Under the pieces are notes generated by a model, which was not told the DNA's origin, did no database searches, and was given only the letters and a program-made list of their open reading frames with translations. Below are positions 1,408 through 16,201 of a stretch of 64,000 nucleotides of DNA, one piece after another. The stretch is from Escherichia coli (lineage in GTDB: Bacteria; Pseudomonadota; Gammaproteobacteria; Enterobacterales; Enterobacteriaceae). The stretch lies in the NCBI RefSeq assembly GCF_965641715.1, contig NZ_OZ282453.1; one strand, written 5' to 3'. Each line of letters begins with the position of its first letter. The first letter of the stretch is position 1. A program made the position numbers and the translations under genes.

Positions 1408-2394
1408 TCACTTATTAAAATGCCCCCAACGGAAATACATGTCACATGCCATCATAAAATCGTTATGCCAGAGGAATCGACAATGGAAAAAATAGTAAAT
1501 TAAGCACGGTATATAGCAGAGTAAAAAATAGGCTTCAAACCAAATCCGCCATTCCACAAGCGTTGCCAATACCGACACCAGCGTAATCCACATCACTTCA
1601 ATAACCAGCAATATGAATAACCGAAGCCAAAGCGGCTTGGCAAAAAAGGTCGACAACGCATTTTCACTGGAGAAAAAGAGATCGATTTCCTGCAAAAAAA
1701 GCCTGCCCAAAAAAGCGTACCGCCTGGAGAAGCGCAGAAAAAACAGATTAATCGCCAACACTACGCCACAAAGAATGAGCAATGCAATTATCGATTTAAA
1801 CGTTAACCACTGCCCCTCTATCACAAAAGAATCACTGTTACGCAACGGGCTGATAGTAAGCAGGTTAACAACCGTTGAGATGCACACCGAAAGCAGCACA
1901 TAGCGAGTCAGACTTTTATATTTTACTTTTTTCGCTACTGAAATAGCGACCTGCTTGACATAACTGGTGCGGATCATCCGAAACAGCAGAAAGATGACCA
2001 ACGGCCCAAGTAACGAAATCAGGAACAGCGCATATAACGAGGGTAGAAGCTGGTATAGCCCCCAACTCATTGCACTCAACATGATTAACGACAGAAATCC
2101 TGCCACCAGAGGTTGTGTAAGAAATAATTCTATTTTGTGGTTCTGCTTTTTCTTAAACCACGAAAAATCGATATTCTTCGTGACGCATTTATAAGCCCAG
2201 TACGCTTTGAGATCAAAAATAAAATTATACAGCACCAGGGCCAGAATCCCACTAACGACACCAATATCCTCTGATGGAAAAGTAAATCCTGCATTTTTCC
2301 AATAAAAGCCTATCAGAATAAGTCCAATAGCATAAATGTATATCAGACTTCGTTTATCCTGAAAGCGAATAAAAGTTAAATAATCAGGAATCAT
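1408..2394 (-). CDS. ycdU: Polytopic inner-membrane protein of unknown function (328 aa), last gene of the lipid cluster
   Basis: Many hydrophobic helices in translation; position next to serX and length match what I recall for K-12 YcdU; 4-bp overlap (ATGA) with upstream gene. Confidence 0.6.
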
Positions 2395-3335
2395 TTGAAT
2401 ACCTTCGCATCAGTAAATGCTTTACGACAATGCATAACTCGTTGCTGATCCACACCAGCAAAATCGTTTAACATATTCCCCAAATAGGGCTTATTACTTA
2501 TTTCAAGGAAGGCTACCGAGGTTGGCATATTCAGAAATGTATCGAGAGATTCAGTCCATTTCACCGTATGAGTTAAGTGTAATGAGAGATTTTCTTTGAT
2601 AATTGACGGAGCGACCTCGCTTTTTGCTGTTACGTTCATCAGAACCTGATGCTCTGGCGAAGCGATATCCAGTCCGGCAAGATAATCGCGCATTGCCTGA
2701 ACGCCGTCTTCCATCAAACGCGTGTGCCAGGCACCGCTCACACCGAGTTTAACCGGTTCGTATCCAGCGGCCATCAGCAGCGTGGCAAATTCATTCAACG
2801 CAGCCTGCGTTCCTCCAATAACCTGCTGGCGCGGCGTGTTATCACAGCTAATATCCAGCGCAATGCCTGATTCCGTAATCATCGTCTGCAGTTGTTCGCG
2901 GTTGATGCCTTTAACCGCCAGCATTGCGCCTTTATTTCTCTGGCTTTCGTCATGCATCAGGCTGGCTCTGAAGTGAATCATGCCAAATAGCGTCTCAAGA
3001 GAAATAGCTCCAGCGGCGTAGAGCGCACTGTATTCACCAACGCTGTGTCCGCAGGAGCCCACAACCGTTAAATTCTCAAGACGCTCGCGGCACAGGGTAT
3101 AGAGCGTTACATTAATTGCGGTCACCGCCAGTTGTTGTACCGTCGTTTGAATAAGGCGATTCATCGGCCCTTTCTGACACAGGCGACGCAGGTTCAGTCC
3201 GGAAATATCGCTGGCACAATCCCAGATATGTTTTGTACTGGCGTTGAGATCCCAAAGATCGCTGCCCATACCAATAACCGGATTACCCTGACCGGCAAAA
3301 AGCAGTACTGTCGGTTGTGAAGCATTATTCATCAT
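2391..3335 (-). CDS. Malonyl-CoA:ACP transacylase-like acyltransferase (FabD family), 314 aa
   Basis: [14 protein letters not shown] near the N-terminus and GHSVGEYSA active-site motif (GHSxG nucleophile elbow). By position, probably the intact form of the K-12 ymdE fragment. Confidence 0.8.
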
Positions 3336-3345
3336 CTCTTTATCC

Positions 3346-4734
3346 TTATAGATAGTATTTAAAGCCCAAATAAAGGCCTAACGTGTCGCCAAAAAGCGCA
3401 AATTCAGAATACCGACTTCCCAGCGCGCTATAGCCACCGGCATAGGCTTCAAGCTGGTTACTGATAGTGCTGAGCGGCGTGGAATAATGCAGGCCCAGCA
3501 ACGTGCTGCCATCAACGAGATTCACCACCAGCGAAGGCTGCAGCGTCGACTCTCCCGCCAGCGGCAGACTGGCCCAGGCGTTCAGATAGTGCTTACCCTG
3601 CAGCATCCCCTGATTGGCGGTATTGCTGATTTCTGAAGCCATCAGGTATTTGTAAGAATCAAATGCCTGATCCAGTGGCGCATAACCGGTTGTGGTGTTG
3701 AGGAAATCAATTAACTCGCGCTGCTGACGCTGTTCAGCACGCGAATAACCCTCGCTCTGAAAGTAATACTCAACGCCAAACACGCTGAAACTATCGCTGG
3801 TGTACTGCCCCCCCAGGGCCAGCTCCACGCCGCTTTCATCTTTCGTTTCATAGAGCGAATCCGGAAACTGATATTCCTCGACCTGCGCCGTCTCACGGTG
3901 GGAAAGATGCCGCCATTGCTGGGAGCGGTGGTAGGCTGCGTCGACATTCAGCGTAAGCTGCGGGGTGTAGTGATAACTGTCAGACAGCGCGAGTGACGGC
4001 GATGGTCCGAGCCGCACATTGACTGTCGGCGTGTGCTCACCAAAGCGATGGTCGCTGTAGCTCAGCAGATAGGCTTCATCGCTGTTTCCCTGCTGATTAG
4101 CAGACCAGTTGCCAGACGTCACATAGCGTTTGTCGATGGTGGCTAACTTCGGTATGACGCTCGCCGAAAACGCATAATCGCGTGTGTCCACGCTCATTTT
4201 TGCACCCCACGATGACGCCTGATACGCCGATGTCATTTTGGGATCGTGCAAACGCGTCGACTGGAAGCCGGTGTAATAATGCGTTTGCAAATCAGAAGGC
4301 GAACGCAAAAAGAACATTCCTGACGGCGCGGCAAATTTGCCTGCTTCAAATTGAACGCTGTCCGAGGCGCTATAGACCAGACTGAGGCGGTTAATTAACG
4401 CACGTGTGCGGCTATCATCCGTTTCGAATTTCCCTGCGGGTTTAAGCGCATATTCGTTTATTCCATACAGATTGAGCTTAAGTTCCAGCGTATTGTCGAT
4501 TATCGAACAACCGCTGTTGATGCCAATCCCCGCCTCCTGATAACCGTTGTGACGTGTGTAGGGATTTTTGCCTGCAATCTGCCAGGCCGAAGCCTGTTTA
4601 TTGACATAAGACACCTGCTCGTAAAGCGTCACATCGCTGTTTTGTGCCACCTCGTCACCTGACAGGCAATCCGCCTGTAGCGTCAACGGCAGCGCAACAC
4701 ACAGCAACGAAGAGATCTTCAGCCTGCGTTTCAT
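3346..4734 (-). CDS. Predicted outer-membrane beta-barrel protein with signal peptide (462 aa)
   Basis: N-terminal signal peptide (MKRRLKISSLLCVALPLTLQA); alternating Y/G/S/T-rich amphipathic strands; aromatic-rich C-terminus (LGLYLGFKYYL). Confidence 0.55.
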   Translation of the reverse strand: MKRRLKISSLLCVALPLTLQADCLSGDEVAQNSDVTLYEQVSYVNKQASAWQIAGKNPYTRHNGYQEAGIGINSGCSIIDNTLELKLNLYGINEYALKPAGKFETDDSRTRALINRLSLVYSASDSVQFEAGKFAAPSGMFFLRSPSDLQTHYYTGFQSTRLHDPKMTSAYQASSWGAKMSVDTRDYAFSASVIPKLATIDKRYVTSGNWSANQQGNSDEAYLLSYSDHRFGEHTPTVNVRLGPSPSLALSDSYHYTPQLTLNVDAAYHRSQQWRHLSHRETAQVEEYQFPDSLYETKDESGVELALGGQYTSDSFSVFGVEYYFQSEGYSRAEQRQQRELIDFLNTTTGYAPLDQAFDSYKYLMASEISNTANQGMLQGKHYLNAWASLPLAGESTLQPSLVVNLVDGSTLLGLHYSTPLSTISNQLEAYAGGYSALGSRYSEFALFGDTLGLYLGFKYYL

Positions 4735-15054: not shown

Positions 15055-15057
15055 AAA

Positions 15058-15855
15058 TCACCGCATGACCAGGCCGCCATCGATAACGATGGTCTGGCCG
15101 ACAATGTAGCTGGAGGCAGAGGAACTTAAGAAGACGATGGTGTTCGCCACTTCTTCACATTTACCCAGACGGCGTAACGGGATGGTACTGGTTACCGCAC
15201 GGACCACTGCGCGGGATACTTTTTTCACCATTTTCGATTCAATCATTCCCGGTGCGACCGCGTTGACGCGCACGCCCCAGGGTGCCATTTCTGCTGCCAG
15301 CGTGCGGGTGAAGCCTAGGATCGCCCCTTTTGACGCGCTGTAATTCGCCTGACCGACGCTTGGGATCAGCGCTGCAATAGAGGCAACGTTAATAATGGCG
15401 GGATTTTCTGCCGCACGAAGCAACATCAGCGCGTCTTTCGTCAAACGGAAAATGCTGAACATGTTGGTTTCGATAACCTGGGTGAAATCCTCATAGCTCA
15501 TCGAGGCAAACAGGCTGTCTTTAACGATGCCCGCGTTATTCACCAGCACATCAATCTTGCCAGCTTCGCGCTCTATCTGTTCGCACAATGCGCTCACGCT
15601 CTGGGGGCAGGCGAGATCGCACTGCACAATATGCAGTTTATCGCCTGCAGGATGGCTTGCTTTCAGCGCCGTTAATTGCACGTCGTTGGATTTATAGAGC
15701 GCATAAACATCGCAGTTCTGCTCCAGATATTTTTCGCAAATACCCAGTCCAATATCACCACTGGCTCCTGTCACCAGTACGGTTTTTTCATTTAAATCAT
15801 TATATTTGTACATATTCATCACATATGTTGAGTTAATAAACGATGACAGTCGCAA
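15058..15855 (-). CDS. 3-oxoacyl-ACP reductase-like short-chain dehydrogenase (FabG family)
   Basis: Rossmann motif [18 protein letters not shown], catalytic YSASK; start may be internal. Confidence 0.8.
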
Positions 15856-16201
15856 TGGCGTGGGTACGGCAATGCGAAATACTCAGGGAGTTATTTTGCA
15901 ACCCCTGCCCGAGAAAAATTTCTTGTAGTCTTCCGGAAATAACGAAATAAGGTGCTTTGGCCGCATCATGCTTTATTTCAATATCCTGGAAACGTACGCC
16001 ATCACGAAAACCACAACCAATCGCTTTAACTAACGCTTCTTTCGCCGCCCAGAATCCAGAGGCCCGTTCATAATCAGGTTCTGCAGGATTAATGAGTAAG
16101 CGCTCATGAGCAGTATAAACACGCTCATAAAAAGCCATCTCTCCATTAATAATGGCTTTGGTTATTCTGGCAATTTCAACAATATCTGTCCCTATTCTCA
16201 T
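15833..16201 (-). CDS. Holo-ACP synthase / 4'-phosphopantetheinyl transferase, AcpS-type (122 aa)
   Basis: [13 protein letters not shown]... and [13 protein letters not shown] are the AcpS family hallmarks; first gene of the lipid cluster. Confidence 0.8.

Follow-up and report, generated by a model that had tools for sequence, protein, structure and literature searches.

In the heterocyst glycolipid pathway, a fatty acid synthase/polyketide synthase (FAS/PKS)-like line makes a lipid whose export to the outer layers is the task of a DevA-type ATPase and an FtsX-type permease. For the aryl-polyene (APE) cluster APE_Ec of Escherichia coli CFT073 (OI-138 in O157), 18 functions have been listed (PMC8253772). 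E. coli O157:H7 carries a two-partner secretion (TPS) pair, OtpA (ECs1282) and OtpB (ECs1283), whose secretion was shown experimentally and whose function is listed as unknown (PMC5422565), as it also is for OtpA in a preprint (bioRxiv 10.1101/2020.04.13.038984). Here we analysed a 64,000-nucleotide stretch of E. coli DNA (the window; assembly GCF_965641715.1, contig NZ_OZ282453.1), in which 15 genes on the minus strand (1408-16201), encoding an acyl-chain assembly line and a putative export route, adjoin otpB and otpA. We propose, with a probability of about 60%, that these genes and the otpA/otpB pair form a single functional operon of 17 genes and three modules that makes and exports a lipid together with OtpA/OtpB. 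The single chemical steps considered below are much less certain.

The locus itself is already known. It was listed in 2006 as "lipid metabolism genes" (PMC1635569) and in 2022 as the 16-gene synteny cluster s1-ST11, where antiSMASH 6 reports an "aryl polyene biosynthetic gene" (PMC9205054). The literature searched yielded neither a functional study of these lipid genes nor a description of the 17-gene unit including OtpA/OtpB, the second ketosynthase (KS)-like pair, the three-module architecture, the distribution across genera, or the core status of the GcvT-like and YcdU-like genes. From otpA to ycdU, the genes are the following:

17925-21737, minus strand: otpA, TpsA exoprotein of 1270 amino acids (aa); Pfam TPS domain (PF05860), NPNGI motif in the alignment.
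16217-17836, minus strand: otpB, TpsB outer-membrane transporter; Pfam POTRA_2 (PF08479), POTRA_3 (PF17287) and ShlB (PF03865).
15833-16201, minus strand: AcpS-type phosphopantetheinyl transferase (PPTase); Pfam ACPS, NCBIfam TIGR00516 79.6 against a cut-off of 59.8.
15058-15819, minus strand: FabG-like ketoreductase (KR), a short-chain dehydrogenase/reductase (SDR); Pfam KR and adh_short, TIGR01830 E 7e-71 (below cut-off).
14506-15054, minus strand: FabZ/FabA-fold dehydratase (DH) with an inserted segment; Pfam FabA, weak ApeI-like match.
14203-14484, minus strand: dedicated acyl carrier protein (ACP); Pfam PP-binding.
13007-14167, minus strand: GcvT-like enzyme of the folate-dependent aminomethyltransferase family; Pfam GCV_T and GCV_T_C.
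10375-12933, minus strand: fused KS/chain-length factor (CLF)-like protein of 852 aa; two ketoacyl-synt/Ketoacyl-synt_C pairs.
9147-10370, minus strand: KS3, second ketosynthase-family protein of 407 aa with a non-canonical active site; Pfam ketoacyl-synt.
8197-9150, minus strand: X317, 317-aa thiolase-fold protein, probable non-catalytic partner of KS3; predicted fold search.
7479-8186, minus strand: LolD/MacB-like ABC ATPase; Pfam ABC_tran (PF00005), best NCBIfam match LolD TIGR02211 at E 8e-68, below cut-off.
6839-7495, minus strand: 218-aa protein whose N-terminus holds a signal or anchor segment; single hydrophobic segment at residues 6-27.
5528-6838, minus strand: MacB/LolC-type (FtsX) ABC permease with a periplasmic domain; Pfam MacB_PCD (PF12704) and FtsX (PF02687).
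4731-5519, minus strand: LolA-like periplasmic carrier (TP_0789-like); Pfam PF17131, RefSeq name outer membrane lipoprotein-sorting protein.
3346-4734, minus strand: 462-aa outer-membrane beta-barrel of the OprD/AlgE/Wzi type with 18 strands; predicted fold.
2391-3332, minus strand: FabD-like malonyl-CoA:ACP transacylase (full-length ymdE); Pfam Acyl_transf_1, NCBIfam fabD E 2e-52, below cut-off.
1408-2394, minus strand: YcdU, polytopic inner-membrane protein with at least six hydrophobic segments.

Like APE_Ec, this operon combines a KS and a CLF-like partner with an extra KS, a KR, a hot-dog DH and a dedicated ACP, has no enoyl reductase, carries a LolA-like protein that suggests outer-membrane delivery, and occurs as an accessory island in Enterobacterales. 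It works like envelope-lipid clusters of the APE kind but fails on the features that define them, as detailed below. The characteristic features of a type II FAS/PKS are present in the Cys-His-His condensing enzyme, the ACP serine, the PPTase and the GHSxG malonyl transferase; a full reducing cycle is lacking, and two distant variants of the locus (L039 and L041) carry a second SDR. The ishigamide system (Iga11/Iga12, 6kxd), a highly reducing type II PKS, resembles the operon in the match of its KS to the KS N-terminal half and in the predicted fold of X317, and discrete KR and DH enzymes acting on ACP-bound chains occur both there and in the cispentacin (Amc) system, as here. All scores against the Amc proteins fell below cut-offs (AmcF 245.6 vs 325, AmcB 30 vs 80, AmcE 28 vs 140). 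In contrast to both systems, the E. coli operon has no adenylating starter enzyme, resides in a Gram-negative host and includes envelope-export and TPS genes. It differs from the heterocyst glycolipid/DevBCA system in the absence of a DevB-type fusion protein and a glycosyltransferase, and in the architecture of the synthase.

The initial annotation had described 15 co-directional, closely spaced genes, and this was borne out: all 15 open reading frames (ORFs) are intact, are separated by gaps of -17 to +73 bp and coincide with the RefSeq gene calls in E. coli strain A30 and O157:H7, to which the stretch is 99.6% and 99.0% identical, respectively. The boundary it had placed at 16201, in contrast, did not hold, because otpB and otpA are conserved together with the 15 genes. 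The unit thus runs from otpA to ycdU (1408-21737, minus strand), with gaps of -17 to +88 bp and with none of the 17 genes disrupted. Over these genes, the window differs from O157:H7 at 212 positions in 20,330 bp, with a ratio of nonsynonymous to synonymous substitution rates (dN/dS) of 0.08, indicating purifying selection; for otpA the value is 0.06. The 15-gene stretch corresponds to the distal part of O-island 47 (OI-47/S-loop 71) of O157:H7, an island of 31.7 kb spanning z1528-z1556 (PMC8565820). At least 80% of the stretch is present in 380 of 5426 complete E. coli genomes, and about 2290 further genomes of the same set hold only the terminal 1.3-1.5 kb, that is, ycdU and the 3′ part of the FabD-like gene. 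In BW25113 and MG1655-type genomes, the match is limited to query bases 1-1327 within these two genes, and ymdE of K-12 has been described as a gene truncated by IS3 (PMC4951805); both agree with the earlier proposal that K-12 keeps just the ymdE fragment and ycdU. Upstream of otpA lies a 1.39-kb AT-rich non-coding region (21738-23129) with no Rfam family match, followed by the divergent loc6 fimbrial genes. Rfam detected no regulatory RNA within or upstream of the operon, and no regulator gene adjoins it, except for an AraC-type gene in the distant variant L041.

The arrangement goes well beyond what chance would produce, as its conservation across genera shows. Related loci were retrieved using X317 as the marker, which gave 131 clusters in 5.8 billion proteins and 55 hits in 1.84 billion representatives, and by a genome scan with two peptide patterns; the resulting count of 25 species is a lower bound. 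An identical gene order was found in more than 25 species, with local GC contents from 31% to 56%, comprising members of Enterobacterales (E. coli, Enterobacter, Klebsiella, Kosakonia, Mixta, Rahnella, Serratia, Leclercia, Silvania, Izhakiella, Buttiauxella, Tenebrionibacter and Pantoea) together with Acinetobacter, one Neisseria sp. isolate and the Orbaceae genus Utexia. A tblastn matrix showed all 15 genes in the same order and on the same strand wherever the contig allows. By tblastn, too, a TpsB gene (44-67% identity) lies directly upstream of acpS in 26 of the 26 loci that reach far enough, and a TpsA gene or its remnant precedes it in 25. The flanks were different in each of the genera compared: tpsA forms the 5′ border throughout, with a preceding gap of 670-830 bp, and unrelated housekeeping genes lie upstream of it in Acinetobacter equi, Utexia and Klebsiella aerogenes. 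Because TpsB and TpsA stay with the cluster while the flanks change, the conserved unit extends from tpsA to ycdU and comprises 17 genes, and otpA and otpB share the inheritance of the other two modules and probably their transcription. L040, a diverged metagenomic variant, likewise has all 17 genes in the same order.

A later preprint (bioRxiv 10.1101/2020.04.13.038984) relates that those who first described OtpA/OtpB suspected a connection with the loc6 fimbriae encoded upstream. We rejected this pairing, since other genera have no fimbrial genes upstream and keep the lipid genes downstream.

More distant variants delimit the modules. In L041 the genes follow the order FabD, YcdU-like, AcpS, KR, DH, ACP, GcvT, KS-CLF, KS3, X317 and second SDR, with the AraC-type regulator gene upstream and divergent. 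This content places the GcvT-like enzyme and the YcdU-like protein in the biosynthetic core and marks the export set and the TPS pair as separable modules. The GcvT-like enzyme is present in every variant, including the minimal L041. L039 has added a second SDR and has acpS moved to the end; its contig starts just before the KR gene. In L037 and L038 (Logan metagenome contigs, 31% GC), tpsA adjoins acpS and the synthase, FabD-like and YcdU-like genes are kept, and the ABC/FtsX pair is degenerate and weakly conserved.

We then assigned domains from the Pfam hits stored for identical proteins and from NCBIfam scans, and judged motif invariance on the window together with about 27-29 orthologues. 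Every domain and gene function named in the initial annotation of the 15 proteins was confirmed. Nearly all NCBIfam scores lay under the curated cut-offs, the AcpS-type protein being the only one to exceed an equivalog-type cut-off, and the proteins are family paralogues, distinct from the housekeeping enzymes. The FabG-like ketoreductase exceeds the cut-off of the subfamily model PRK12826. The dehydratase carries a GHFPxxPIMPG motif invariant in 27 sequences, and the FabZ models of NCBIfam cover only its residues 17-80. Invariant as well are the serine motif LDSVD of the ACP (27 sequences) and the GHSVGE, Arg and GAWH motifs of the FabD-like enzyme across the orthologues compared. YcdU gave no credible family in the Pfam search, and its gene lies 3′ of the FabD-like gene in all loci reaching far enough. 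The enzymes are those that had been listed as a complete, standalone acyl-assembly set; the claim of completeness did not stand, since Pfam and NCBIfam detected no enoyl reductase domain among the 17 proteins, no thioesterase or other off-loading acyltransferase was recognisable, and KS3 lacks the second catalytic His.

The operon contains two ketosynthase/partner pairs, a fused KS-CLF and a split KS3/X317. All 28 sequences compared retain the canonical catalytic Cys (ATACTAS), His (HGTGT) and His (GHNIG) in the N-terminal half of KS-CLF, and the PDB matches of this half are led by 9s5h_B and include the ishigamide KS 6kxd_A; none of the three residues occurs in the C-terminal half, as in chain-length factors. 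Of 30 close KS3 orthologues, 29 have the Cys, and the first His never varies; the position of the second His is taken by an invariant Tyr (motif K-x-x-x-G-Y), also in diverged variants. Since in β-ketoacyl-ACP synthases I and II the His of the K-x-x-x-G-H motif aids decarboxylation of malonyl-ACP, KS3 is unlikely to be an ordinary elongating ketosynthase.

X317 was recognised by its predicted fold, which is similar to that of the ishigamide CLF 6kxd_B; confidence in the structure models is moderate. Neither the Pfam search (nothing credible) nor a sequence-profile search of the PDB (no hit even at E 10) identified it. Alignment of X317 with KS3 by hhalign was weak (probability 3%), so that the position of the KS3 Cys opposite Gly149 of X317 is at most a hint; on this alignment X317 seems to have no nucleophile at the canonical elbow. 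In the metagenomic variant L039, KS3 and X317 are encoded as one 784-aa protein, which argues that they act as a pair, as do KS and CLF. We rejected the RefSeq name of X317, ATP-binding protein: the protein has a thiolase-like predicted fold and no detectable nucleotide-binding domain, and its name seems to be a misannotation propagated across the family.

A separate observation concerns the nucleophile of KS3. Its active-site Cys is replaced by Ser in Silvania hatchlandensis (L025) and by Thr in L041, with His and Tyr retained, which casts some doubt on the need for a thiol nucleophile in KS3.

The GcvT-like enzyme lies next to the ACP and KS genes, with neither gcvH nor gcvP in its context. 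Its scores are far under the GcvT cut-offs (PRK00389, 136 vs 300; TIGR00528, 99.6 vs 235.85), and by this measure it falls outside true GcvT. The best solved relative is Thermotoga maritima GcvT (1woo, E 3e-24), and an Asp of the E. coli protein aligns with Asp96 of 1woo, which we take to be catalytic. The best 120 hits of a homologue search were all orthologues from the cluster, and a literature search for an aminomethyltransferase combined with a ketosynthase or a type II PKS returned nothing relevant.

The export genes resemble LolCDE-LolA and MacB (type VII) systems in that the ATPase is closest to LolD, the permease combines a MacB periplasmic domain with FtsX, and a LolA-like gene adjoins them. 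The matches to the LolD, LolC/E and MacB models (NCBIfam lolCE, E 2e-26 for the permease) are nevertheless below the Lol equivalog and other cut-offs, indicating that the transporter is not an orthologue of any of them; the ATPase also matches the DevA family at E 2e-55. Unlike those systems, the locus has no MacA-type adaptor (HlyD/MFP) or TolC-type duct (OEP) domain detectable by Pfam, and it adds the 218-aa protein and the AlgE/OprD-like barrel; its cargo is presumed to be the lipid made by the neighbouring genes. The 218-aa protein matches no Pfam family and its gene always sits between those of the ATPase and the permease. Nothing credible was found for the 462-aa barrel protein in Pfam. 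As annotated, the permease has an extra hydrophobic segment (residues 1-30) ahead of the usual first transmembrane helix (44-66), which is either a fifth helix or a sign that the true start codon lies further downstream.

What the data establish are the synteny of the locus, its gene content and modularity, the folds and catalytic motifs of its proteins and the purifying selection on them; the reaction order, the product and its destination, co-transcription and any contact between OtpA and the lipid belong to the model that we infer from them, as follows. The AcpS-type transferase would activate the dedicated ACP, the FabD-like enzyme would load malonyl units, and KS-CLF would elongate the chain, with the KR and the FabZ-fold DH processing each β-keto group. 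As there is no enoyl reductase, double bonds or hydroxyl groups should remain in the chain, unless host FabI intervenes. The KS3/X317 pair may carry out a non-standard condensation or an acyl transfer, the GcvT-like enzyme may add or remove a one-carbon unit by means of tetrahydrofolate, and YcdU could act at a membrane step. The LolCDE/MacB-type ATPase, the FtsX permease and the 218-aa protein would then extract the product from the inner membrane, and the LolA-like protein would ferry it through the periplasm to the AlgE/OprD-like 18-strand barrel in the outer membrane. The product would be an outer-membrane-associated lipid, and OtpA, secreted through OtpB, would act together with it at the cell surface. 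A more specific version, in which OtpA and the lipid form one surface device, the lipid anchoring, activating or being presented by the beta-helix exoprotein, and in which the GcvT-like enzyme performs a one-carbon step on an ACP-bound intermediate, is a tentative idea that we consider rather doubtful. In the literature we found no precedent for a TPS system with its own lipid line, nor for a GcvT-like step on an ACP-bound intermediate.

Several observations weigh against a single 17-gene unit with this function. The tpsB, LolA-like and barrel genes are missing together from the contig in L037/L038, and the 12.5 kb of the L041 contig that were read contain neither TPS nor export genes; these absences imply that the modules can work apart. 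OtpA is said, in work attributed to Choi and colleagues in 2007, to be secreted in K-12 with OtpB alone, in which case the lipid genes are not needed for its secretion. A simple promoter/terminator scan, in which promoter-like sites were scarcer than in shuffled sequence and no internal terminator was convincing, carries no information on co-transcription, and we found no transcript data spanning the gene junctions and, in the literature, no product, pigment or phenotype of the operon. The role of the GcvT-like enzyme is left unexplained by our analysis. Finally, because neither an off-loading enzyme nor an acceptor-specific transferase is recognisable, the end product cannot be derived from the gene content.

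The best surviving alternative is that the lipid pathway serves to modify OtpA, with the acyl chain covalently attached to it or acting as an obligate cofactor and the Lol-like module handling a lipidated protein. OtpA and OtpB have the domains of a type Vb two-partner secretion system, namely the TPS domain in OtpA and the POTRA domains and ShlB barrel in OtpB, and their co-inheritance with the lipid genes, complete in the diverged L040, together with the purifying selection that tpsA shares with the enzymes, would fit such a modification. So would the acylated proteins that homologues of LolCDE and LolA normally carry. A stable periplasmic OtpA intermediate has also been reported (PMC5422565). 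However, Pfam and NCBIfam found no HlyC-, Lgt/Lnt- or Lit-type acyltransferase in the 17 proteins, OtpA has no lipobox, and L041 keeps a synthase core with no TPS gene; the reported secretion with OtpB alone speaks in the same direction. We therefore regard modification of OtpA as unlikely.

Other features of OtpA were noted. TpsA proteins are about 780-890 aa long in the other genera examined, compared with 1270 aa for E. coli OtpA, which contains an internal duplication of about 340 residues with 59% identity (residues 525-863, 19149-20165; residues 903-1241, 18015-19031). Full-length orthologues in other genera have a single copy of this unit, and Tandem Repeats Finder reported no repeats in otpA.

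That the operon is instead a pigment cluster of the APE/xanthomonadin type, producing an outer-membrane-anchored APE-like polyene, appears less probable still. The antiSMASH 6 flag in s1-ST11, the KS/CLF logic shared with APE clusters along with the KR, the DH (through its weak ApeI-like match) and the LolA-like protein, and the missing enoyl reductase, which fits a polyene, all led towards this interpretation. Against it, 10 of the 18 APE_Ec functions (PMC8253772) have no counterpart in the 17 proteins: ApeA, ApeB, ApeD, the second ACP, ApeG, ApeH, ApeJ, ApeK, ApeM and ApeN. The missing roles include the lipoprotein ApeA, the methyltransferase ApeB, the acyltransferase ApeD, the glycosyltransferase ApeJ, the thioesterase ApeK, the starter-activating acyl-ACP synthetase ApeH, the resistance-nodulation-division (RND) transporter ApeM and the DUF3261 protein ApeN; a lysophospholipid acyltransferase and a COG4648 protein are likewise absent. 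We detected no AMP-binding/acyl-ACP synthetase domain in the 17 proteins or in any related locus, and no ammonia lyase, methyltransferase, glycosyl- or acyltransferase or RND exporter in the 17 proteins. From the APE attachment and export set (ApeD, ApeJ, ApeK, ApeM, ApeL, ApeN), only the LolA-like protein (PF17131) has a counterpart. Conversely, the operon differs from APE_Ec in its fused KS and CLF, its own PPTase and malonyl transferase, its second KS-like pair and YcdU, and the GcvT-like enzyme, the ABC/FtsX extractor, the 18-strand barrel and the TPS pair do not belong to APE clusters. Moreover, O157 has its genuine APE cluster at another site, ECs4324-4341 (PMC9205054; bioRxiv 10.1101/2020.04.13.038984). 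The resemblance to APE/xanthomonadin clusters and the distinction from them by the absent aryl-starter enzymes and methyltransferase, both put forward in the initial annotation, are thus upheld by comparison with the published APE functions.

A silent or decaying remnant of horizontal acquisition, or a set of housekeeping fab paralogues adjacent by chance and with no present function, would accord with the absence of the cluster from most E. coli, the two remnants in K-12, the long AT-rich region upstream of otpA and the lack of a known phenotype, but is highly improbable, and the conservation excludes it: all 17 ORFs are intact under a dN/dS of 0.08, catalytic motifs are invariant across genera, the same genes recur in the same order and strand in at least 26 loci of other genera despite the wide range of local GC, and expression of ECs1286 varies with growth phase in a Sakai microarray (PMC2241611).

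A functional 17-gene operon would have consequences beyond the window. It is present in nearly all O157:H7 strains and also in the clinically relevant Enterobacter cloacae complex, Klebsiella oxytoca, K. michiganensis and K. aerogenes. The orphan genes ymdE and ycdU of K-12 are explained as what is left of the distal end of a 17-gene operon after its deletion, and OtpA/OtpB, a well-studied model secretion pair, gains concrete candidate functional partners. If the product were found, it could represent a new class of envelope lipid and a new use of the GcvT fold in acyl-chain chemistry, and the operon could become a compact model for Lol-like lipid transport across the Gram-negative envelope.

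Beyond the 3′ end of ycdU, a tRNA-Ser(GGA) gene occupies positions 947-1034 and is presumably serX, given its position beside ycdU. An 80-nt direct repeat (1016-1095 and 1197-1276, 99% identical) holds the 3′ end of the tRNA and a terminator-like hairpin, and resembles the duplicated att site that an island integrating there leaves behind. An integrase gene is found at this tRNA-Ser site in O157:H7 and strain A30, and is not in the window. Between the repeat copies, RtT RNA gave a marginal match at 1079-1215 (46.3 bits against a gathering score of 45). Far from the operon, Rfam gave a strong match to Ysr251, a family of Yersinia antisense small RNAs, at 42670-42863 on the plus strand (190.9 bits), just after pgaD and overlapping the 3′ end of phoH, which is encoded on the other strand.

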